From NCBI GenBank assembly GCA_041498975.1, contig JBGQJI010000087.1, positions 1 through 10,420 of the forward strand: a stretch of 10,420 bases of DNA. Direction: 5' to 3'. Shown here piece by piece: positions 1 to 10,420 of the stretch; position 1 is the stretch's first letter; each line of letters begins with the position of its first letter. Below the pieces are notes generated by a model that worked only from the letters and a program-made list of their open reading frames with translations, made no database searches and had not been told where the DNA came from. Made by a program: the position numbers and the translations under genes. Origin of the DNA: Candidatus Methylomirabilis sp. Its GTDB lineage: Bacteria; Methylomirabilota; Methylomirabilia; Methylomirabilales; Methylomirabilaceae.

Positions 1-2
1 TC

Positions 3-302
3 CGGGTCTCGGGCCGATTCAAGGGGAACGTCAACGTCAAAGGTGAACTGACGGTCGAGCCGGGTGCCTCGATCGACGGAGAGGTGAATGCGGATACCGT
101 CCTCGTCGGCGGCGAGGTGCGGGGGCAGATCGTCTCTTCATCCCGCGTCGAGCTGAAGGAGTCCGGCACCGTCATCGGCGACCTGAAGGCAGGGAGCCTG
201 ACAGTGGCGGCAGGATCGAGGATGCGGGGCAAGGTCGAATTCGGGTGGAAGGAAGGCGAGATCGAGGAGATGCATCCGGGCGAGGGCGGCCTTCCACGAT
301 GA
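3..302 (+). CDS. Bactofilin / polymer-forming cytoskeletal protein (CcmA family), 5'-truncated by the window edge
   Basis: Frame is open from base 3: RVSGRFKGNVNVKGELTVEPGASIDGEVNADTVLVGGEVRGQIVSSSRVELKESGTVIGDLKAGSLTVAAGSRMRGKVEFG. This is the typical bactofilin beta-helix pattern. The track start at 84 is internal. Confidence 0.9.
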   Translation, partial: RVSGRFKGNVNVKGELTVEPGASIDGEVNADTVLVGGEVRGQIVSSSRVELKESGTVIGDLKAGSLTVAAGSRMRGKVEFGWKEGEIEEMHPGEGGLPR

Positions 303-658
303 GCGGCCATGGGGTGATCGGCGAGGCGTGGAACTGCCCGCATTGCAGGGAGCGCATCCTTCGAAGCGCGGTAGCCTGCCCGGCTTGCCAGCGACACCTG
401 CATGTCGACGCCGTCACCCTCGCAAGACCGGCCCAGGCCACGGTATGCCCGCTCAGCGTTGACGGCACGATCCGGCATCCCGGGACCGAGACCCCTTGGG
501 AGTATACGGTTCTCATCGACATCCATGATGCACCGGGACAATTGCTGGCAAGACGAGTTGTTGGCGTAGGGGCGCTTCGGCCTGGCGAGACGCGCACATT
601 CACACTCCGTGTAGAGGTACTCGTGCCCGAGAAATCTACGCTGACCTCAGCCCCCTGA
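299..658 (+). CDS. Hypothetical protein with N-terminal zinc ribbon (CPHC...CPAC) and C-terminal beta-sandwich-like (FxLYD-like) region
   Basis: ATG at 299 overlaps the bactofilin stop (ATGA). Contains two CxxC motifs, then a beta-rich segment ending VGALRPGETRTFTLRVEV. 119 aa. Confidence 0.7.
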   Translation: MSGHGVIGEAWNCPHCRERILRSAVACPACQRHLHVDAVTLARPAQATVCPLSVDGTIRHPGTETPWEYTVLIDIHDAPGQLLARRVVGVGALRPGETRTFTLRVEVLVPEKSTLTSAP

Positions 659-1164
659 CTGAGGGCTTCGCCAAGACCAACAGGACGCCCGCGTCCGCTC
701 GGCGTGGCTGCCACGCCCACGGCTGCTCCAGCACTCGCGACCCTCGGAGGCTCGCCAATCGCCTTCTGCTCTCTGGCCCCAGCGAACAGCAGTTGAATCC
801 CCCCAATGTGTTCCTCTTGGCTCGACCGTACGCCGATGCCCTTCTCCCGCGCAAGTAACGCGCCACGGCCTCCGCTCCCTATCGGGGTGAGGGCATGGCC
901 TAATCACTGGCGAGGGGAGCCGTGCAGGCGATTGGGGTCCGAGACCAGGCGCTTCTCGAAGCGCTGCCTCTTGACAGACGACTGATCAGGGACATCAGGA
1001 AATTTGAAGGCGGGCCACGGGACTCCTCTAGACATGCTGTTCACCCTTACGGGCGACCTCATCTGTATTCATACATGCTCGCAGGCCAACATTCGAACGA
1101 AGTGGGGCGGCGCTCAGGCGGAAGGTCGACTTTCCTTGTGGAAATCATAGGATAGAAAAAGTTC

Positions 1165-1193
1165 TTGACACGCTTCGCCGTGCGAGATATAAA
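1165..1193 (+). promoter_or_regulatory. Sigma70-type promoter for the Rrf2-led operon
   Basis: TTGACA (1165-1170), 17-bp spacer, TATAAA (1188-1193). An A-rich tract lies just upstream and the Rrf2 ATG is 48 bp downstream. Confidence 0.75.
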
Positions 1194-1216
1194 ATCCGAG
1201 TAAGTCGATCGACAAT
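1192..1216. promoter_or_regulatory. Candidate Rrf2 (IscR type-1-like) operator overlapping the -10/+1 region
   Basis: AAATCCGAGTAAGTCGATCGACAAT has a 5-7-5 imperfect dyad core (CCGAG-N7-ATCGA) resembling IscR type-1 boxes. A similar core, TCGAC-N7-GTGGA, lies at 1126-1142. Confidence 0.5.
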
Positions 1217-1240
1217 CTTGTAATAGCTGGACAAAGGATC

Positions 1241-1690
1241 ATGCGAGTTTCCACCAAAGGCGATTACGCAACGCGGGCGATGCAGGATCTCGCCTTCCAC
1301 TATGATCAAGGGCCGATTCAGATCGAGGACATCGCGAAGCGACAACATCTTCCCGTGCGGTATCTGGAACAGATCCTCTTGAGCCTGAAACGGGCGGGCT
1401 TCCTTGAAAGCAAGCGGGGGGTGAATGGGGGCTACTACCTCGCCAAGCATCCTCGGGAGATCACCGTCGGGGCCATCATCAGGACCATGGAGGGCCCGAT
1501 CATCCCTATCTTCTGTGTCGGCAGCGGGAAGCGGGAGATCTGTATCGAAGAGCCGCTCTGCAGCCTGCGGGATATCTGGAACGAAGTCCGCGATGCTGTG
1601 GTGAGGATTGTGGACCATACCACTCTCGAAGATCTGTGTCGGCAGATCAGAGTGAAGCGAGAACGGCAGGAGTTGACGTACCAGATCTAA
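1241..1690 (+). CDS. Rrf2-family transcriptional regulator (CymR/IscR-like)
   Basis: Motifs MRVSTKGDYATRAM, YLEQILLSLKRAGFLESKRGVNGGYYLAK and ITVGAIIRTMEGP. Cys triad C-x8-C-x5-C. AAGGA RBS upstream. Confidence 0.95.
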   Translation: MRVSTKGDYATRAMQDLAFHYDQGPIQIEDIAKRQHLPVRYLEQILLSLKRAGFLESKRGVNGGYYLAKHPREITVGAIIRTMEGPIIPIFCVGSGKREICIEEPLCSLRDIWNEVRDAVVRIVDHTTLEDLCRQIRVKRERQELTYQI

Positions 1691-1792
1691 TCCCGTTCCA
1701 ACTATTTACACCACAATGGAGGCTAGGGACAGCGAGAGTTCTTGGTAGGGCTTATGTTGGCGATTAGCCGCACTCAGTTGGAACGGGACTAG
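1687..1792. mobile_element. MITE-like element / long terminal inverted repeat pair in the rrf2-cysK intergenic region
   Basis: CTAATCCCGTTCCAACT (1687-1703) and AGTTGGAACGGGACTAG (1776-1792) are reverse complements at 16/17 positions, with a perfect 13-bp core. The 72-bp interior is non-coding. Flanks are CTAA/CTAG. Confidence 0.55.
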
Positions 1793-1822
1793 CCCTTTTA
1801 GGGGCAAAAGGTATAGAGACCG

Positions 1823-2737
1823 ATGCCACGCTTGGTTCGAAACGCGCTCGAATTGATCGGCGATACCCCATTGGTGGAGTTGCAGCGGATTCCGCGGCGA
1901 GGCTCCGCCCGTATTCTTGGAAAGCTGGAGTCTCTGAATCCAGGGGGAAGCGTCAAAGATCGGATCGCCCTGGCAATGATCGAAGAGGCGGAGCGTAACG
2001 GGCGCCTGAAGCCGGGCGACACGATCGTCGAGCCGACCTCAGGGAACACCGGGATCGGCCTTGCGATGGTGGCGGCGATCAAAGGGTACCGGTTGATCCT
2101 GACGATGCCGGAAGACATGAGCCTGGAGCGCCGGACGCTGGTCGGTCGGTTCGGGGCCGAGCTGGTGCTCACTCCAGCAATCGAAGGGATGACTGGCGCG
2201 GTCTACGCGGCCCAGTCGCTGGTGGAAAAGCATCCCGATTACTTCATGCCTCAGCAGTTCCTGAACCCGGCCAACCCCGAGATCCACCGGCTGACCACAG
2301 CCAGGGAGATCCTCAAAGCGACTCAGGGGCAGATCGATGCGTTTGTGGCCGGCGTCGGGACCGGCGGGACCATCACGGGGGTAGGCGAGGTGTTGAAGAA
2401 AGAAGTTCCCGGCGTCCAGGTGATCGCAGTGGAACCAGCCAAGTCTCCCGTCTTACAGGGAGGCAGGGCCAGGCCCCACGGGATTCAGGGAATCGGCGCC
2501 AGCTTCGTCCCGGGAGTCCTGAACAGGGAGATGCTTGACGAGATCATCGCAGTCGAGGACGAGGATGCCTATCGGATGGCCGCTCGCCTGGCCAAAGAAG
2601 AAGGCCTCCTGGTGGGAATATCGGCGGGAGGAAACGTTGTTGCCTCGACGTTGGTGGCGGAACGGCTTGGAGCCGGGAAAGTCGTGGTCACAATCCTCCC
2701 CGACACGGGCGAGCGATACCTGACCGTCCCATTCTGA
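1823..2737 (+). CDS. cysK: Cysteine synthase A (O-acetylserine sulfhydrylase)
   Basis: Motifs LIGDTPLVEL, KLESLNPGGSVKDRIA (PLP lysine), EPTSGNTGIGLA, QQFLNPANPEIH, GVGTGGT, HGIQGIGASFVP and DTGERYL. Confidence 0.95.
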   Translation: MPRLVRNALELIGDTPLVELQRIPRRGSARILGKLESLNPGGSVKDRIALAMIEEAERNGRLKPGDTIVEPTSGNTGIGLAMVAAIKGYRLILTMPEDMSLERRTLVGRFGAELVLTPAIEGMTGAVYAAQSLVEKHPDYFMPQQFLNPANPEIHRLTTAREILKATQGQIDAFVAGVGTGGTITGVGEVLKKEVPGVQVIAVEPAKSPVLQGGRARPHGIQGIGASFVPGVLNREMLDEIIAVEDEDAYRMAARLAKEEGLLVGISAGGNVVASTLVAERLGAGKVVVTILPDTGERYLTVPF

Positions 2738-2819
2738 TTCGCGCGGGAGCCAGAGCATGAACGCCTATCGTGGTCTAGATTCTTTGAGGGGAGGGGAGCC
2801 AACGGGGGGTGAGGTGTCG

Positions 2820-3905
2820 ATGGCGATCCGTGTCTATATTCCGACTCCGTATCGGAAGCTGACCCGGAATCAGCCCGTCGTCGAGGGGCATGGGGACGAT
2901 CTGGTGGAACTCCTGGACGACCTGGAGAGGCGCTTTCCGGGCATCCGCGGCCATGTGCTCGACGAGGGTGGTGAGATTCACCGCCACCTAAACGTCTACG
3001 TGAACAGTGTGGCGCTGGAGGAGCTTGGAGGCAAGCGAACGCCACTGAAGGATGGTGACGAGGTGGCGGTGATCCCGGCCATGGCGGGCGGGGCCGTGCC
3101 CTTCAATGAAGAGCAGATCCGCCGCTACAGCCGGCATATCATCCTCCCCGAGGTGGGGGGCAAAGGTCAGCGCAAACTATTGAACAGTTCGATCCTCCTG
3201 GTCGGGGCAGGCGGCCTCGGCTCCCCTGCGGCCCTGTACCTCGCCGCCGCGGGTGTCGGTCGTCTCGGCATCATCGACGCCGATGTCGTGGACATGAGCA
3301 ATTTGCAACGCCAGATCCTCCACCACGTGGATGATGTGGGACGACCGAAGGTCCAGTCTGCGGTGGATTCGATCGGCCAGATCAACCCCGACGTGAAGGT
3401 TGAGCCGTTTCAGGCGATCCTCTCCTCGGAAAACGCCAAGGACATCATCGGCCAGTACGACCTTGTGGTCAACGGCTGTGACAACTTCCCGACCCGGTAC
3501 CTGGTCAACGACGTCTGTGTCTTTCTGAAGAAGCCGCTGGTAGACGGAAGTATCTTCAAGTTCGAAGGACAGGTGACGGTTTTTGTCCCTGGTCAGGGCT
3601 GCTACCGCTGCCTGTACCCTTCCCCTCCGCCTCCCGGACTTGTCCCGAGTTGTCAGGAGGCCGGCGTCCTGGGAGTGCTGTGCGGCATCGTCGGGAGCCT
3701 GCAAGCCATCGAGGCGATCAAGCTTCTGCTCGGGATCGGCGAGTCCCTGGCCGGGCGTCTGCTCTTCGTGGATGCATTTGGGATGGAGTTCCGGCAGGTC
3801 AAGGTGCGCCGCGACCCCGACTGCCCGGTGTGCGGAGACCGTCCGACCATCACCGATCCGATCGACTACTACGAATTCTGCGGGGTGCCTGCCACGGGTC
3901 ACTGA
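2820..3905 (+). CDS. moeB: Fusion of a CysO/MoaD/ThiS-like ubiquitin-fold sulfur carrier (aa 1-91, ending AMAGG) and a MoeB/ThiF-family E1 adenylyltransferase
   Basis: GAGGTG RBS before ATG 2820. Ubl: VYIPTPYRKLT...HLNVYVN...LKDGDEVAVIPAMAGG. E1: RYSRHIILPEVG, GAGGLGSP, SNLQRQILH, DNFPTRY, CYRC, CQEAGVLG and CPVC. No stop codon between the domains and no C-terminal rhodanese domain. Confidence 0.93.
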   Translation: MAIRVYIPTPYRKLTRNQPVVEGHGDDLVELLDDLERRFPGIRGHVLDEGGEIHRHLNVYVNSVALEELGGKRTPLKDGDEVAVIPAMAGGAVPFNEEQIRRYSRHIILPEVGGKGQRKLLNSSILLVGAGGLGSPAALYLAAAGVGRLGIIDADVVDMSNLQRQILHHVDDVGRPKVQSAVDSIGQINPDVKVEPFQAILSSENAKDIIGQYDLVVNGCDNFPTRYLVNDVCVFLKKPLVDGSIFKFEGQVTVFVPGQGCYRCLYPSPPPPGLVPSCQEAGVLGVLCGIVGSLQAIEAIKLLLGIGESLAGRLLFVDAFGMEFRQVKVRRDPDCPVCGDRPTITDPIDYYEFCGVPATGH

Positions 3906-3923
3906 AGGGAAAGGAACGACGCG

Positions 3924-4940
3924 GTGCTTCGAACGGTTGTCCTCGGAATGGTCGTTGGCGTGGCCTTCGGATACGCGCTTCAACGCGGCCGCTTCTGCAT
4001 GAACTCCACATTCCGCGATATCCTGGTGGCGCGGGACCTCACACTTCTCCGCGCGTACATCCTGGCCCTCCTGATCCAGATGGTCGGGGTCAGGGCGATG
4101 TCGGCATTGGGGTGGTTTGAGTTGGGCGTCACCCCCTTTTTCTGGGAGGCTACCCTGTTGGGCGGCTTCGTGTTCGGCCTGGGCATGGCCTTCTCGGGCG
4201 GGTGAGCGAGCGGCAGCACTTACCGGTCCGGTGAGGGGATGGTGGGATCGATCATCGCGTTGCTCGGGTTTGCGTTCGGAATCACCATGACGAGCGGTGG
4301 TGTGCTCGAGCCGGTCCAGACCGCCCTCCGGAGCTGGGTGGTCGAGATCGATGGGGAGTCGGCGACCCTGGATCGGCTCTTTGGAGTGAGCCCATGGCTC
4401 CTGGTCGCGGTGAGTGTGGCGGCCGGCGGATGGTGGTTGTGGAACAGCCCGGCAGGCGGATACCAGAAGGGGTGGAGCTGGACGAGAAGTGGGATCGCGA
4501 TCGGGCTGATCGCCACGTTCGCCTGGCCCATCTCGGCGCTCACCGGCAGGGATTACGGTCTCTCGATCACCGAGGGGATCCGGACGATTTTCGGGCTCCT
4601 GTTCACAGGCGAGGTCGATCTACTGACCTGGGGCAGCTTCATGTGGCTGGGGATCATCCCCGGTGCCTACCTGGCGGCGCGGTCGCACGGGGAATTCGCT
4701 TGGCGCGCGCCCGGCGCGCAGCGCCTCCTCCAGGCCCTCGGGGGCGGTCTCCTGATGGGGGTGGGGGCCGGGATCGCCGGGGGATGCAATATCGGGCATG
4801 GCCTGACTGGGGTCCCGCTCTTTGGCTTAAGCAGCCTGACGGCCACATTCAGCATCGTCCTGGGGGTCTGGACCGGAGCATATATCCTCTTCGGGAGCGT
4901 CGCTTTTGAGCGGAGGGTCAGAAGTGTCCAACGCGCGTAG
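3924..4940 (+). CDS. yeeE: YeeE/YedE (TsuA-like) thiosulfate/sulfur-compound transporter, predicted selenoprotein (UGA 4203-4205 = Sec94; 338 aa)
   Basis: Track ORFs 3924..4205 and 4239..4940 are in the same frame. Readthrough gives FGLGMAFSGG-U-ASGSTYRSGEG, matching the family GGCASG motif. The other conserved Cys motifs, RGRFC (C25) and AGGCNIGH (C288), are intact. Multiple TM helices; SECIS-like hairpin downstream of the UGA. Confidence 0.88.
4219..4235 (+). promoter_or_regulatory. Putative bacterial SECIS element
   Basis: CTTACC-GGTCC-GGTGAG hairpin (6-7 bp stem with one G-U pair). The GGUC-containing apical loop begins about 20 nt after the in-frame UGA. Confidence 0.75.
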
Positions 4941-5835
4941 GATCGGAATCTCTTTCATCGCGACGTGTGTCGTCTGTTGGGTCGGGGCAGTTCAGCCGGC
5001 CCTTGGAACGACGGTTGGCGGCTACGCGAACCCGCAGCTTTTGATCGAGACAGAGGAGTTGGCCAAGCTGGTTGACGAGCCGGCATTGCGGATTGTAGAC
5101 CTTCGAACACCGGAAGAGTATGCCGAGGGCCATATCCCGGGCGCGGTGCATCTGCGCTGGCAGGCCCTGGATGACCTCAAGGCGAATCAGGAGGGTCTCC
5201 CGATCCCCAAGGCTCTGGCAGAGGAGCTGTTCAGCGGAGTGGGGATCGGGGACACGACGAGGGTCGTTGCGTACGATGGTCCGAAGACCCCCTTTGGCGC
5301 CACCCGCCTCTTCTTTGTCCTGGAGTTCTTCGGCCATGACAAGGTCCGGGTGTTAAACGGCGGCTTCAAGAAGTGGGCGCAGGAAGGTCGCCCGGCCTCT
5401 ACCGAGGCGCCGGCGCCGGCCAAGGCCGCCTTCGTCGCTCGACCACGCCCAGAGCTGCTGGCCACCTCGCAGGAGGTGCGCGCGAGACTCGGCGACCCGA
5501 AGGTGTGCCTCCTGGATGCTCGATCGGCGAAGGAGTACACCGGGGAGGATCTCCGGGCCATGCGGGGTGGGAGGATTCCCGGGGCGGTCAATGTGGACTA
5601 CCTCAATACCATGCGGAGTGAGGACCAGACGTTCAAGAGCGTCGAGGAGTTGCGAAAGCTCTTTGAGTCCGCAGGGGTCACGCCGGACCGGGAGACGATC
5701 ACGTACTGCCACACGGGCGCCAGGGCGGCTCACGACTACTTCGTGCTGCGACTCCTGGGATACCAGAAGCTCAAGAACTACGATGGCTCATGGGCCGAAT
5801 GGGGTAACTCCGAGGGGCTGCCGATCGAGGAGTGA
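4924..5835 (+). CDS. Two-domain rhodanese / thiosulfate sulfurtransferase (SseA/TST-like) with probable signal peptide
   Basis: GGAGG RBS then GTG 4924 (alternative start 4906). N-terminus MSNARRIGISFIATCVVCWVGAVQPALG. Motifs YAEGHIPGAV, VRVLNGG, LLDARS, GGRIPGAVN, active-site loop YCHTGARA and YDGSWAEW. Overlaps the yeeE stop by 17 nt. Confidence 0.92.
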   Translation: MSNARRIGISFIATCVVCWVGAVQPALGTTVGGYANPQLLIETEELAKLVDEPALRIVDLRTPEEYAEGHIPGAVHLRWQALDDLKANQEGLPIPKALAEELFSGVGIGDTTRVVAYDGPKTPFGATRLFFVLEFFGHDKVRVLNGGFKKWAQEGRPASTEAPAPAKAAFVARPRPELLATSQEVRARLGDPKVCLLDARSAKEYTGEDLRAMRGGRIPGAVNVDYLNTMRSEDQTFKSVEELRKLFESAGVTPDRETITYCHTGARAAHDYFVLRLLGYQKLKNYDGSWAEWGNSEGLPIEE

Positions 5836-5848
5836 TGGGGGAGAATGG

Positions 5849-6076
5849 ATGGCGCAGTATTCGCTCGACGTGACCGGGGAGATTTGCCCCTATCCTTTGA
5901 TCATGACCAGGAAAGAGTTGGGGAAGCTGCAGCCGGGTGATCAACTGGTCGTGACAGTCGATTACGCAAAATCGGCGGAGGACATCCCCAGGTGGGCGAA
6001 GGAGGATGGCCACACCGTCCTGGCGGTTCGCGAGATGGGCGGGACACAGTGGGAAATCCTGCTGGAAAAGGGGTAA
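5849..6076 (+). CDS. TusA/SirA-family sulfur carrier (YeeD/TsuB-like), CPYP motif
   Basis: ATG 5849 after GGGGAG. Sequence MAQYSLDVTGEICPYPLIMTRKELGKLQPGDQLVVTVD...DIPRWAKEDGH, 75 aa. The track's 5516 start is an over-extension. Confidence 0.92.
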   Translation: MAQYSLDVTGEICPYPLIMTRKELGKLQPGDQLVVTVDYAKSAEDIPRWAKEDGHTVLAVREMGGTQWEILLEKG

Positions 6077-6134
6077 CCCTGATCTCCTGGGGCTGGCAGG
6101 CTGGCCGGCGCCGTCTTGAGCCGGGCGAGGTGTC

Positions 6135-7106
6135 GTGATCGCGTTGAATCCGCCACGGATGGTGTTGATGGCCCTGGCGCTTCTTGCAGGAGGCGCTGCT
6201 GCACAGGCGGAGGCGGCCGGTCGCGTCTACACGGCCAACATGGAGTCCGGCACCGTCTCCGTCATCGATGCCGACGCGATGAAGGTCGTGCTCACGATCG
6301 ATGCCAGGGGACATCACACCGACGACCTTTTCTTGTCGGCTGATCAGTCCAAGCTGTTCGCGACCAACATGCACAGCGGGACCCTGGCGGTCGTGGACAC
6401 CGCTACCGATCAGGTGATCGCCACGATCCCGACGGGGAAGAAGGCTCACTCCATTGCCCTCACTCAGGATGGCAAGCACGTCTGGGTGGTCAACGGGGGA
6501 GAGGAGTATTTGACCGTTGTGGATGTTGCCTCGCTCAGGATCGTCGGACGGGTCTTTCTGGGCCAGATCCTCGGCCCGGGATATGTCCGATTTAACCCCG
6601 AGGGAACACGGGCGTATATGACGAGCCCGATCCTCGGCACTGTTTCCGTGATCGACGTGGCCTCGAAGAAGGTGATCGCGACGGTGGAGGTCGGGAAGAG
6701 TCCGACCTTCATCGCCGTGACGTCCGATGGGCGGCGAATCTGGGGCGCCGATACCGGCGGCGACGAGATTTTTGCCCTCGATGGCTCGAACAATAGCCTG
6801 CTGGGGAAGCTGACAGTAGGGAAGGCTCCGAACCATCTCGCCCTCGTTGGCGACAGCCTCTATGTGACAGTGGGAGGGACGAACGAAGTGGCGATGGTGG
6901 GCGACGTGGGCGGCCAGGTGAGCGTGAGGGGGCGGATCAAGGTCGGCGGGAGGCCCCGTGGAATCAGGCCCAGCCCGGACGGGAAGCGCCTGTATGTCAC
7001 CAGTGAAGATACGAACGATCTGCACGTGATCGACATTGCGGCACAGAGGATAGTGGGGACGGTCCCGGTGGGCAGGAGGCCCGTCGCCGTCGTGACGGCG
7101 AGATAG
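6135..7106 (+). CDS. Secreted YVTN/YncE-family seven-bladed beta-propeller protein
   Basis: GAGGTG RBS. Signal peptide ...MVLMALALLAGGAAAQAEA. Seven repeats of the type RVYTANMESGTVSVID / RLYVTSEDTNDLHVID, several linked by VGxxP-type turns. Confidence 0.9.
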   Translation: MIALNPPRMVLMALALLAGGAAAQAEAAGRVYTANMESGTVSVIDADAMKVVLTIDARGHHTDDLFLSADQSKLFATNMHSGTLAVVDTATDQVIATIPTGKKAHSIALTQDGKHVWVVNGGEEYLTVVDVASLRIVGRVFLGQILGPGYVRFNPEGTRAYMTSPILGTVSVIDVASKKVIATVEVGKSPTFIAVTSDGRRIWGADTGGDEIFALDGSNNSLLGKLTVGKAPNHLALVGDSLYVTVGGTNEVAMVGDVGGQVSVRGRIKVGGRPRGIRPSPDGKRLYVTSEDTNDLHVIDIAAQRIVGTVPVGRRPVAVVTAR

Positions 7107-7133
7107 ATCGACCGTCGCTTTGGAGGAAGTCGG

Positions 7134-7379
7134 ATGAGCGAGCGCCATCAGCAGGTGGCCGAATCCCTCGATTTGAAGGGTGAGGTCTGCCCCTACACCT
7201 TTGTCAAGAGCAAGCTGGCGCTGGAGGAGATGGAAAGCGGCCAGGTGCTGAGAGTGATCGTAGATAACCGAGGCTCGGCCGAAAACGTCCCTAGAAGCTT
7301 GACCAGTGAGGGGCACCAGATCCTGGACGTGTCACAATTGAACGAAACGGACTGGGCGATCACGGTGAAAAAGGCCTGA
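7134..7379 (+). CDS. Second TusA/SirA-family sulfur carrier, CPYT motif
   Basis: GGAGGA RBS. Sequence SLDLKGEVCPYTFVKSKLALEEMESGQVLRVIVD...ENVPRSLTSEGH, 81 aa. Confidence 0.92.
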   Translation: MSERHQQVAESLDLKGEVCPYTFVKSKLALEEMESGQVLRVIVDNRGSAENVPRSLTSEGHQILDVSQLNETDWAITVKKA

Positions 7380-7501
7380 TGCGCGCAGCGTCAGCCGTTG
7401 AATCACTCTCGGCAGCAGGCAAGATGGGGGAAGACGGAACTTCGGGCAGCCTGACGGGTTGAAGCGACCCGGGCACGGGACTGACGACAAAGGGGACATG
7501 G

Positions 7502-8437
7502 ATGAAATCAGCCGATATTCTCGATGCCATCGGTAAGACGCCGCTGGTGGAGCTTACGCGGATCAGTCCCAAGAAAGGGGTCAGGATCTTCGCCAAGATG
7601 GAGGGAAACAACCCCACCGGGAGCCTGAAGGATCGGATCGCGAAGTACATGATCGAGCAGGCTGAACGGAGCGGCGAGCTGACGAAGGACAAGACGATCT
7701 TGGAGCCGACAAGCGGCAACACCGGCATCGCCCTGGCCATGATCGGGCGAAGGAAAGGGTATAAGGTCAAGGTCGTGATCCCGGAGAACGCCACACCGGA
7801 GCGGCGCCAACTCCTGGAGATCTTCGGCGCCGAGATGATCTACTCTGATGGGACGAAAGGGAGCAACGGCGCCATCGAGCTGGCTCAGAGGCTGGTCGCC
7901 CAGGATGCATCCCTCTACATGCCATACCAGTACGGCAATCCCGCCAACCCCCTCGCCCACTATGAGACGACCGGTGTGGAGATCTTGAACGACCTGCCGG
8001 AAATCGACGTCTTCGTGGCCGGCCTTGGCACAGGCGGAACCCTGATGGGTGTGGGCCGACGGCTGAAAGAAGTCAATCCCAAGACCAAGGTCATCGCTGT
8101 CGAGCCTCATCCCGGCGATCTGGTCCAGGGGCTTCGCAGCCTGGAAGAAGGTTTCATTCCGCCCATCCTCGACACAAGCCTGCTGGACGGAAAGATCATG
8201 GTTGACTCCCGCTGCGCCTTTGCCGCCACCCGGGACCTGACCAATAAGGAAGGGATCTTCGCAGGGGTCTCCTCGGGGGCTGTGGTTCATGTCGCCATCC
8301 GGATGGCGCACCGGCTGGAGGAGGGAAACATCGTCGTCATCCTCTGTGATGGCGGATGGAAGTACGTGAGCCTTGGCGTATGGCACAAGGAGTTTCCGGA
8401 GCTCGGTGAAAATATGTACAGCCATCTCTGGTGGTAG
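7502..8437 (+). CDS. cysM: CysM-type PLP-dependent cysteine synthase (probably sulfur-carrier-dependent O-phosphoserine sulfhydrylase)
   Basis: Motifs NNPTGSLKDRIA, EPTSGNTGI, YQYGNPANPLAHYETTG, GLGTGGTLMG, GLRSLEEGFIP and DGGWKY, with C-terminal HLWW. These resemble actinobacterial CysM. Neighbours are a CysO-like carrier, an E1 and Mec. Confidence 0.88.
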   Translation: MKSADILDAIGKTPLVELTRISPKKGVRIFAKMEGNNPTGSLKDRIAKYMIEQAERSGELTKDKTILEPTSGNTGIALAMIGRRKGYKVKVVIPENATPERRQLLEIFGAEMIYSDGTKGSNGAIELAQRLVAQDASLYMPYQYGNPANPLAHYETTGVEILNDLPEIDVFVAGLGTGGTLMGVGRRLKEVNPKTKVIAVEPHPGDLVQGLRSLEEGFIPPILDTSLLDGKIMVDSRCAFAATRDLTNKEGIFAGVSSGAVVHVAIRMAHRLEEGNIVVILCDGGWKYVSLGVWHKEFPELGENMYSHLWW

Positions 8438-8438
8438 G

Positions 8439-8915
8439 ATGGACCTTACTCAGGACGCCTTGAAAGAGATCTTCGCCCACGCCGAGGAGGGCTACCCCGA
8501 CGAAGTCTGCGGGATCGTGCTCGGGAAGGGGAGCGATCCGAACACGCATCTGGTCCGCCGATGCGCCAATCTCGCGAACCAGCATCATCAGGAAGATCCG
8601 GTTCGCTTTCCCAGAGATGCCAGGACCGCGTATGTCATGGACCCTCAGGACCTTCTGCGCATCCAGCGCGAAGCCGATACCAAGGGGCTTGACTTCCTTG
8701 TCATCTATCATTCCCACACGGATCATGAGGCATACTTCTCCAAGACCGACAAAGAGCTGGCGCTGTTCGATGGGGAGCCGATGTGGCCTCATGCGCGGTA
8801 CATGGTGATTTCTGTCAAGGACCATAATGTATCTTATTATAAGGTATTTAGATGGGATTCTCTACTAAACGACTTTATAGATGAGCCGTCCTCCGTTTTG
8901 AAGGCAAGCCGGTAG
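8439..8915 (+). CDS. mec: JAMM/MPN+ (M67) metalloprotease, Mec-like CysO-cysteine peptidase
   Basis: ATG 8439 lies one base after the cysM stop. Motifs HAEEGYPDEVCG and YHSHTDHEAYFSKTD (E...HxH-x7-S-x2-D). 158 aa. Confidence 0.92.
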   Translation: MDLTQDALKEIFAHAEEGYPDEVCGIVLGKGSDPNTHLVRRCANLANQHHQEDPVRFPRDARTAYVMDPQDLLRIQREADTKGLDFLVIYHSHTDHEAYFSKTDKELALFDGEPMWPHARYMVISVKDHNVSYYKVFRWDSLLNDFIDEPSSVLKASR

Positions 8916-9012
8916 CCTCTTTTTGGCCCGCGGTTCTTGATGGTTTCAATCGACGTACTCGCACATGTAGACGTTGACGACTGACCGGAGGAATGTGCCA
9001 CCAGCGAAGGGA

Positions 9013-10420
9013 ATGGCGGTGAGCGACCCACGGTTGGACGAAACCAAGGCGCAAAGGATTGAGCGCCTGAAGAAGGAAAAGAACCCGTGGGAGTGCTTCG
9101 ACGAAATCCGCCGCTTCGCCCGAGAGGGGTTTCAAGCGATTCCGGCAGAATGGCTGGCCAGCTACCTCCGGTGGTGGGGGGTGTATACGCAGGGGGACGG
9201 GATCGGCGCGGTTGGAGGGAAGGGGGGGGAGGGAAAATCCACGCCGTACTTCATGGTGCGCATCCGCATCCCGAATGGGTTTCTGCTTGCCCATCAACTG
9301 CGTACCATTGCTGACCTTGCCGCACAGCACGCCCGCGGCGTCGCCGACCTCAGCGTCCGGCAGAACATCCAACTGCACTGGGTCACGATCGAGGACCTGC
9401 CCGAGCTTCTTGAGTCTCTCTGGAGATGCGGAATCACGACGATGGGTTCGTGCGGCGACGATACGCGGAACATCACCGGCTGCCCGCTTGCCGGTGTGGA
9501 CGGTGATGAACTCGTCGATGCCTCGCCCCTGGTCCATGCGGCGACTCGCCTGTTGAACGGGAACGCGGAGTTTTATAACCTGCCGCGCAAGTACAAGATC
9601 TGCATCAGTGGTTGCCGCGCCTGGTGTGCCTACCCCGAGATCAATGACATCGGAATGACCGCCGTCGGGCATCCGAAGTCCGGCGAGATCGGGTTCTCAG
9701 TGCGGGTCGGCGGGGGACTTTCCACGCAGCCTCACCTGGGCGTTCGGCTGAATGTCTTTGTGCGCTGGGACCAGGTGCTGCCGGTCGTGAAAGGTATCAC
9801 GGAAACCTTCCGCGATTCAGACATCTTGCGCCAGGATAGGGAAAAGGCGCGGATGAAATTCCTGTTCCTCACCCATGGGTGGACCGCCGAACGATTTCAG
9901 AAGGAGGTGGAACGCCGCACCGGCTTTTTCCTCGACCCGGCCGTGCCGGAAGAGCCGCCGGACGATGTCTACCGCGACCACGTCGGCGTTCACCCGCAGA
10001 AGCAGCACGGGTATTACTATGCGGGCGTTCCCGTCCTTCGCGGGCGGATGACCGCCGAGCAGATGCAGGGGATGGCGGGTCTTGCCGATCGCTATGGCAG
10101 CGGCGAGCTGCGCATCACCGTTATGCAGAACCTGGTGATCCCGAACATCCGGCAGTCGCACATACAGGCGCTCAAAGAGGAGATCAACCAGACAGGTCTG
10201 CGACTCGAGGCGTCACCCTTCTGGCGAGGCACGATCGCCTGCACGGGGACGGAATTCTGCAAGCTCGCCTTGACGGAGACCAAAGGGTTTGCCGGATGGC
10301 TGGTGGAAGAGCTCGAGCGACGGATGCCGGGCTTCGACCAGCACGTCAAGATCCACGTCACCGGCTGTCCGAATAGCTGCGGGCAGCAGTGGATCGCCGA
10401 CATCGGGATCGAGGGGAAGA
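9013..10420 (+). CDS. Ferredoxin-dependent sulfite/nitrite reductase (siroheme-[4Fe-4S] hemoprotein, Sir/NirA family), 3'-truncated
   Basis: Missing from the ORF track because it runs off the window. Frame reads LRWWGVYTQ, FMVRIRIPNG, RQNIQLHW, SCGDDTRNITGCP, NLPRKYK, IACTGTEFCKLA and HVTGCPNSCGQ. Start is uncertain (GTG 8995, ATG 9013 or GTG 9019). Sulfite specificity is inferred from context. Confidence 0.93.
   Translation, partial: MAVSDPRLDETKAQRIERLKKEKNPWECFDEIRRFAREGFQAIPAEWLASYLRWWGVYTQGDGIGAVGGKGGEGKSTPYFMVRIRIPNGFLLAHQLRTIADLAAQHARGVADLSVRQNIQLHWVTIEDLPELLESLWRCGITTMGSCGDDTRNITGCPLAGVDGDELVDASPLVHAATRLLNGNAEFYNLPRKYKICISGCRAWCAYPEINDIGMTAVGHPKSGEIGFSVRVGGGLSTQPHLGVRLNVFVRWDQVLPVVKGITETFRDSDILRQDREKARMKFLFLTHGWTAERFQKEVERRTGFFLDPAVPEEPPDDVYRDHVGVHPQKQHGYYYAGVPVLRGRMTAEQMQGMAGLADRYGSGELRITVMQNLVIPNIRQSHIQALKEEINQTGLRLEASPFWRGTIACTGTEFCKLALTETKGFAGWLVEELERRMPGFDQHVKIHVTGCPNSCGQQWIADIGIEGK

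Follow-up and report, generated by a model that had tools for sequence, protein, structure and literature searches.

A YeeE-type sulfur transporter gene with an in-frame UGA predicted to encode selenocysteine in a sulfur-assimilation cluster of Candidatus Methylomirabilis

The DNA analyzed here is a stretch of 10,420 nucleotides (nt) from Candidatus Methylomirabilis sp. (contig JBGQJI010000087.1 of assembly GCA_041498975.1, positions 1 to 10,420), referred to as the window, and our subject is a YeeE/TsuA-like membrane transporter gene at 3924-4940 that is interrupted by an in-frame TGA. The gene lies on the forward (+) strand, as do the window genes described below. It opens with a GTG start preceded by AAGGA, comprises 338 codons followed by a TAG stop and holds a single internal TGA at 4203-4205, the site of the selenocysteine (Sec) proposed at position 94. 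This triplet aligns to Cys91 of StYeeE, the homologue from Spirochaeta thermophila, and to TGC or TGT in 64 related loci. Two open reading frames (ORFs) are apparent at 3924-4205 (93 amino acids, aa) and 4239-4940 (233 aa). They have a common frame and are split by the TGA and 11 sense codons, ASGSTYRSGEG (4206-4238), which form a bridge from the TGA to the ATG at 4239, the point at which gene callers restart, and hold R101 and E104. A preliminary description, made from the letters of the window, had taken the two ORFs for one frame broken solely by the TGA, and the translation of 3924-4940 bears this out: with the TGA rendered as U, the read-through product has 338 aa and one recoded position, ...GMAFSGG-U-ASGSTYRSGEG-MVGS....

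The read-through product matches the YeeE family over its length. The Pfam profile Sulf_transp (PF04143) spans it as one stretch, residues 21-317 against profile positions 1-310 of 310 (E = 1.1e-78), and scores 265.4 bits against a gathering cut-off of 27. In a sequence search of the PDB, StYeeE (6LEO) matches residues 7-324 (E = 1.2e-50); the first alignment block is gap-free with an offset of 3, which places U94 on Cys91 and C25 on Cys22, and C288 falls on Cys293. The window protein has all three pathway positions that mark the YeeE family, C25, U94 and C288, with Sec predicted at the second. In an alignment of 121 proteins, the query among them, the covering rows read cysteine in 81 of 81 cases at position 25, in 84 of 84 at position 94 and in 119 of 119 at position 288. 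The corresponding residues of StYeeE, C22, C91 and C293, are aligned about 7 Å apart where the hourglass-shaped protein is narrowest; the C91A and C293A mutants do not complement, and a C22-C91 disulfide is present in the crystal (Tanaka 2020, PMC7449682). YeeD is reported as an essential partner of YeeE, and R98 and E101 of StYeeE touch it (Ikei 2024, PMC11073785). Their equivalents R101 and E104 both belong to the 11-codon bridge, and the ATG that follows it codes for Met106, which is invariant across the family. The preliminary description had regarded both halves as intact, the 11 intervening codons as a continuation of the family motif and the TGA as sitting at the middle of three conserved cysteines; the single full-profile PF04143 match, the conserved flanks, the cysteine columns 25, 94 and 288 and the alignment to Cys91 of 6LEO agree with it on each point. 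The TGA at 4203-4205 is the sole internal stop among the ten delimited genes of the window. TGA is also the normal stop of four of these ten, CysK, the ThiS-ThiF fusion, the rhodanese and the second TusA gene, and hence there is no sign of a global reassignment of the codon. A listing of ORFs with TGA read as U was uninformative: at 61.5% G+C, long spurious frames occur throughout.

How far does the TGA extend among relatives? The genomic comparison comprised 80 related loci from genome representatives, 79 of which cover column 94 (L011 does not), and the codon at this column is TGA in 15, TGC in 44 and TGT in 20. The TGA loci L001-L004, L007 and L008 are 82-91% identical to the window protein and L012-L020 are 50-60% identical; 13 of the 15 are labeled Methylomirabilota, Methylomirabilis, Methylomirabilales or NC10 and two 'uncultured bacterium'. 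All 15 have one internal stop and frames that are open on both sides of it, 13 being complete and two running off the contig. The close relatives L005, L006, L009, L010 and L049 carry TGC, not TGA. The preliminary description had proposed a comparison with orthologues as a check; near orthologues carry TGA or TGC at column 94 within conserved flanks, and the TGA, far from being unique to this assembly, is common to 15 species-level genome representatives. A second comparison used 120 protein homologues among the matches listed. Eleven full-length homologues at 77-81% identity, several of them named NC10 or Methylomirabilis, have cysteine at column 94 and identical flanks. A further 37 of the 120 are C-terminal fragments of 217-236 aa and 60-95% identity (74-95% except one), which begin at query position 106, 107, 111 or 122, that is 12-28 residues past the TGA column, as expected when gene callers restart beyond an in-frame stop; the preliminary description had foreseen such split calls by standard pipelines. 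The ratio of nonsynonymous to synonymous substitution rates (dN/dS, Nei-Gojobori) in pairs of Sec genes is 0.07-0.31 for codons 1-93, upstream of the TGA, and 0.11-0.29 for codons 116-325, downstream of it. Purifying selection acts on both parts of the gene flanking the TGA.

The history of the codon was traced on a maximum-likelihood tree (IQ-TREE) of 37 rows, the window and 36 loci, which leaves out L011 (column 94 uncovered), L049 (114 codons only) and 42 more distant Cys-form loci among L032-L080. All Methylomirabilota rows fall in one clade of 20 rows (support 99/96), made up of 16 Sec and four Cys forms. The four Cys rows, L005, L006, L009 and L010, constitute a single nested clade (support 100/99), and the minimum number of changes between the Sec and Cys states is two. 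If the root is placed among the 17 outgroup rows, all of them Cys forms, the tree reads as a single gain of Sec from Cys at the base of the clade, followed by a single return to Cys. The ancestral state of the Methylomirabilota clade looks to be Sec, which on this tree would have been retained while the protein diverged to 50-60% identity.

Downstream of the UGA, within codons 99-104 (T-Y-R-S-G-E), lies a candidate bacterial selenocysteine insertion sequence (bSECIS) hairpin at 4219-4235, with a 7-bp stem CUUACCG/CGGUGAG and an apical loop GUC. It begins 13 nt 3' of the UGA, and 20 nt separate the UGA from the loop. RNAalifold, given the 60 nt from the TGA of 16 Sec genes (the window and 15 loci), returned a hairpin in which alignment columns 17-22 pair with 28-33 (window positions 4219-4224 with 4230-4235). 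The six pairs are retained in 16, 14, 16, 15, 16 and 16 of the 16 sequences, respectively, and in the window a seventh pair closes the GUC loop; the core folds at -8.5 kcal/mol and the best model match at -10.4 kcal/mol. Published bSECIS constraints specify an apical loop of 3-9 nt with G in the initial two positions, an upper stem of 4-16 bp, a distance of 16-37 nt from the UGA and a minimum free energy of -7.5 kcal/mol or below (PMC13188914), and the window hairpin agrees with all of those quoted. The mean folding energy of the homologous 23-nt stretch is -9.4 kcal/mol in Sec forms versus -4.3 kcal/mol in Cys forms. The values of the four nested Cys forms are -7.0, -5.3, -4.9 and -1.3 kcal/mol, and in these revertants the hairpin appears to have decayed through synonymous changes, for example ACU to ACC or ACG. 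Synonymous diversity provides a further view of the region. When the 313 twelve-codon windows are ranked over the 16 Sec genes, those that start at codons 92-101 take the ten lowest places, with a diversity of 0.22-0.27 versus a gene-wide mean of 0.449 and a minimum that spans codons 92-112; the corresponding window of 62 Cys genes comes 51st of 304. A synonymous dip just after the UGA in Sec forms is the pattern expected of an RNA element that overlaps a coding sequence.

Based on these observations, we propose that 3924-4940 is very probably one intact YeeE-type sulfur transporter gene, whose UGA at 4203-4205 is decoded as Sec at the central pathway cysteine. The orthologue, selection and hairpin analyses support the 338-aa Cys25/Sec94/Cys288 transporter put forward in the preliminary description. 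The product would be a nine-helix inner-membrane importer of the YeeE/TsuA type, in which Cys25, Sec94 and Cys288 line the narrow center of the transport path and Sec94 stands in for the essential central cysteine. SelB in complex with Sec-tRNA(Sec) would recognize the hairpin at 4219-4235 and, competing with release factor 2, insert Sec. From homology and gene context, the protein may import thiosulfate or related sulfane-sulfur species for cysteine synthesis and pass the substrate to a YeeD-like TusA protein, while later steps would use the rhodanese, sulfite reductase, CysK/CysM and ThiS-ThiF carrier system of the cluster. Sec use has been described in this lineage. Candidatus Methylomirabilis oxyfera is listed as SelD-positive and Sec-positive with six known selenoproteins in the supplement of Peng 2016 (PMC5029168), a Methylomirabilota metagenome-assembled genome is predicted to have 63 selenoprotein genes (PMC13188914, citing Deng et al. 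2026) and Sec-type hydrogenases are reported in Methylomirabilota by a 2026 paper.

A number of observations weigh against this proposal, some bearing on the hairpin, some on the machinery and some on the substrate. A script that encodes the bSECIS constraints accepts 15 of the 16 Sec forms, but it also accepts 23 of 64 Cys forms (36%) and hence is not specific, and the nearest Cys forms keep a weaker version of the hairpin. Covariation in the stem is unsupported: there is one compensatory pair, and 470 of 500 shuffles equaled it. This absence of signal arises because the stem hardly varies and encodes part of the conserved peptide T/S-Y-R-S-G-E. Protein-level constraint on the strongly conserved YRSGEG, with which the hairpin overlaps, accounts for part of the hairpin conservation. 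An Rfam scan of the whole window (E <= 10) returned nothing at the TGA and two chance-level matches elsewhere. ARAGORN detected no tRNA-Sec in the window or in 21 loci, and no SelA, SelB or SelD was present in the window or among 44 flank ORFs scanned with Pfam; these 44 came from the 56 flank ORFs of eight Sec loci, the other 12 of which looked like orthologue duplicates. The read-through product scores below the NCBIfam TsuA cut-offs (NF052577, 252.2 versus 400; NF041049, 212.2 versus 645), and for this reason thiosulfate is put forward as the substrate by inference. The searchable literature yielded no experimental work on any Sec-form YeeE. Separately, one AIRS-family match, at L014:1484-2461, is surrounded by purine genes and is taken as PurM.

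Could the UGA be read without selenium? A near-cognate or suppressor tRNA might insert Trp or Cys, or some context-dependent recoding other than Sec insertion might operate, and a hairpin that lacks covariation support is compatible with such events. However, the UGA falls exactly on the column that is cysteine in 84 of 84 homologues, and the pairing of Sec with Cys in homologues is the defining signature of selenoproteins. The hairpin conforms to published SECIS spacing and loop rules, TGA serves as the stop of four of the ten window genes and the lineage has been reported with SelD and the Sec trait (PMC5029168). We give selenium-free read-through only a slender chance. A truly split gene is a slimmer prospect still. 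Translation would stop at the UGA and restart at the ATG at 4239, and the pieces of 93 and 233 aa would assemble in the membrane. The family does include natural two-piece members, in which PmpB corresponds approximately to the N-terminal half and PmpA to the C-terminal half (PMC11582611), and a purine-rich stretch precedes the in-frame ATG 11 codons past the TGA. But PmpA and PmpB have about 130 aa each (PMC11582611), whereas the break in the window gene lies inside GGCxxG and not between halves. A split at this point would delete the essential central cysteine along with the 11 bridge residues, among them the equivalents of the YeeD contacts R98 and E101, and these bridge codons are conserved as protein, with synonymous changes, in 16 of 16 Sec forms. 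The ATG codes for the family-invariant Met106 and hence gives no sign of a new start. An inactivating TGC-to-TGA nonsense change or an assembly error, which needs one base, finds TGC in L005, L006, L009, L010 and L049 and matches the annotation of 37 of the 120 listed homologues as truncated proteins, is effectively refuted by the TGA in 15 other species-level representatives, down to 50% protein identity, by the single internal stop of each with intact frames and a dN/dS of 0.07-0.31 on both sides and by a tree that needs only two state changes, not repeated independent breaks.

What might Sec contribute to a transporter that works elsewhere with cysteine? A lead comes from the genes that follow yeeE in the window: a tandem-rhodanese sulfurtransferase (4924-5835), whose N-terminus is hydrophobic and signal-like and whose catalytic Cys262 is invariant, a YeeD/TsuB-like TusA-family gene (5849-6076; 75 aa, CPYP motif), whose L005 orthologue matches Pfam TusA, and a YNCE-like beta-propeller (6135-7106), again with a signal-like N-terminus. 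Adjacency of Sec and rhodanese was counted over the 80 genome loci. Downstream DNA is available for 14 Sec loci (the window, L001-L003, L007, L008 and L012-L019), and every one of them has the tandem rhodanese after yeeE and before the yeeD-like gene, with a start at -13 to +152 nt from the end of yeeE; the sequences of L004 and L020 stop too soon for scoring. Neither rhodanese nor propeller stands next to yeeE in any of the five nearby Cys-type Methylomirabilota loci (L005, L006, L009, L010 and L011), where yeeE is followed directly by yeeD, TusA and CysM. In the other Cys loci a TusA-like gene almost always directly adjoins yeeE, and the only rhodanese matches there are weak (23-24% identity) and lie at +221 nt (L054) or at +1.6 to +2.1 kb (L030 and L057). 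In each of the 14 rhodanese orthologues the N-terminus is first charged and then hydrophobic and the catalytic cysteine is invariant, and the N-terminus of the propeller is similar; from these features we infer that both proteins are exported. Sec and rhodanese states go together in every one of the 34 tree rows that can be scored. This coincidence rests on only two independent transitions (sign test p = 0.5), and we regard the co-occurrence as a lead and not as a result.

That Sec and rhodanese were apparently gained together at the base of the clade and lost together in the Cys revertants suggests a reading, unlikely on present evidence, in which Sec-form YeeE acts as a covalent relay of sulfane sulfur. 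Persulfide and selenosulfide chemistry along Cys288-Sec94-Cys25 would then move the sulfur, in place of guidance of thiosulfate by hydrogen bonds. The exported tandem rhodanese, possibly aided by the exported beta-propeller, would load the relay from the periplasm, and YeeD/TusA would unload it in the cytoplasm.

How does the window gene relate to systems already known? The preliminary description had left it undecided whether this group of transporters was catalogued. Its Sec interpretation is supported, and the family has indeed been listed: a YeeE/YedE family (PF04143) is included among selenoproteins by the reviews PMC13188914 and PMC9312934 (2022), one of which prints the motif GUxSG, and both give the example WP_012471001.1 and cite Zhang & Gladyshev 2008 and Peng 2016. 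A supplementary table of Peng 2016 counts five organisms and five selenoproteins for this family (PMC5029168). The main text of Zhang & Gladyshev 2008 contains no YeeE, YedE, COG2391, 'sulfur transport' or 'membrane'. The Sec-YeeE family has thus been known as a selenoprotein family since at least 2016, and the basic claim is not new. We liken the window gene to the catalogued family by its Pfam family and its motif, G93-U94-A95-S96-G97 fitting GUxSG; both are known from computation only. The Methylomirabilota Sec-YeeE clade, its Cys reversal and its linkage to rhodanese are not mentioned in the searchable text of the published lists, full-text literature searches brought up neither the clade nor the reversal, and the clade of the window gene is probably newly delineated within a catalogued selenoprotein family.

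Among characterized proteins, the closest parallels are the structurally solved thiosulfate transporter StYeeE and the TsuA-TsuB (YeeE-YeeD) system for thiosulfate uptake of E. coli (6LEO, 8K1R; PMC7449682, PMC11073785), with which the window protein shares full-length homology and the three pathway columns, as well as a nearby YeeD-like CPxP gene and a cysteine-biosynthesis context. It differs from StYeeE and TsuA in the Sec predicted in place of Cys91 and in its TsuA scores below the NCBIfam cut-offs, and its locus departs from the YeeE-YeeD arrangement in having a tandem rhodanese with a signal-peptide-like N-terminus between yeeE and yeeD and a beta-propeller gene after yeeD. The SoxT importers of sulfane sulfur in sulfur oxidizers (PMC11582611) belong to the same family, have the same size and carry three conserved cysteines. 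A periplasmic sulfur-carrying protein has been proposed as the feeder of SoxT, a parallel to the putatively exported rhodanese of the window; in contrast, SoxT proteins are Cys forms encoded in sox/sHdr clusters and serve sulfur oxidation and signaling, not assimilation (PMC11582611). The YedE/FdhT membrane protein of selenium metabolism (NF033796, TIGR04112) comes from the same superfamily and is linked to selenium, which it is thought to transport, but a Sec residue is not among its own defining features. To these models the window protein gives only partial matches (NF033796, 100.3 versus a cut-off of 350; TIGR04112, 40.1 versus 200) and, unlike YedE/FdhT, is encoded in a sulfur-assimilation cluster.

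Split gene calls of the kind described above lead to an under-count of the sulfur-uptake capacity of Methylomirabilota and of the size of their selenoproteome. The central cysteine of YeeE is essential, and its role has variously been proposed as guidance by hydrogen bonds, a channel or a relay. In the Methylomirabilota clade, Sec and Cys forms that are about 80% identical and share their flanking residues make up a natural pair, in which Sec is tied to an extra, putatively exported rhodanese, and this pair together with the rhodanese linkage amounts to a ready-made experiment on the role of the central residue. The Sec-rhodanese co-occurrence is the most interesting remainder of the analysis, as it raises the possibility that sulfane sulfur is handed on covalently by the Sec form.

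The neighborhood of the gene is a cluster that serves sulfur assimilation and cysteine synthesis, which makes import of thiosulfate or a related sulfur species the best functional guess for the transporter. Upstream of yeeE lie an Rrf2-family regulator (1241-1690; in NCBIfam the Rrf2 superfamily ranks first, with CymR second and below its cut-off), the cysteine synthase A gene CysK (1823-2737, by Pfam and NCBIfam profile match) and a ThiS-ThiF/MoeB fusion (2757-3905), whose ThiS part closes with ...AMAGG (residues 108-112) and runs on in frame into the adenylyltransferase domain. Beyond the rhodanese, YeeD-like and propeller genes come a second TusA-family gene (7134-7379, 81 aa, CPYT), a CysM-like cysteine synthase (7502-8437) and a JAB/JAMM (Mec+-like) metalloprotease (8439-8915), and a NirA/sulfite-reductase-type siroheme enzyme (8974-10419), which runs off the window. 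The order Rrf2, CysK, ThiS-ThiF, YeeE, rhodanese, YeeD-like, propeller, TusA, CysM, JAMM, sulfite reductase is kept across Sec loci. The partner that YeeE needs is encoded close by, in the CPYP gene at 5849-6076, with the rhodanese gene between it and yeeE. This YeeD-like gene is hidden in the default ORF listing, where a longer overlapping frame (5516-6076) absorbs it. The two TusA-family genes differ in their motif: the first keeps CPYP, and in the CPYT of the second (7134-7379) the second proline of CPxP is replaced.

The ThiS-ThiF fusion at 2757-3905, the CysM-like gene at 7502-8437 and the JAMM gene at 8439-8915 resemble the CysO-CysM-Mec+-MoeZ route, in which cysteine is made by way of a protein thiocarboxylate. 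In a route of this type, the protease would need to cleave after GG to free the carrier. At the left edge of the window lies a bactofilin fragment (3-302, Pfam E = 2.8e-19), and the roughly 900 bases that follow it (300-1240) have no ORF with a Pfam match except for a weak double-zinc-ribbon at 245-658. Downstream of the cluster, four longer Sec loci have a gene of the TauE/SafE sulfite-exporter family followed by a second, longer NirA/sulfite-reductase-type gene (L007 17267-20150, L008 9444-12214, L014 16708-19422 and L017 7004-9694), and in L013 the TauE gene at 15799-16569 is followed by a HemD-like ORF instead of the second NirA; these genes add to the sulfur theme of the neighborhood. Finally, L049 (DATMXF010000249.1, 1-2148), labeled 'Patescibacteria group bacterium', contains, at 83-85% identity to the window, CysK, ThiS-ThiF and the beginning of a Cys-form yeeE, and looks like a Methylomirabilota contig that was binned into the wrong genome.

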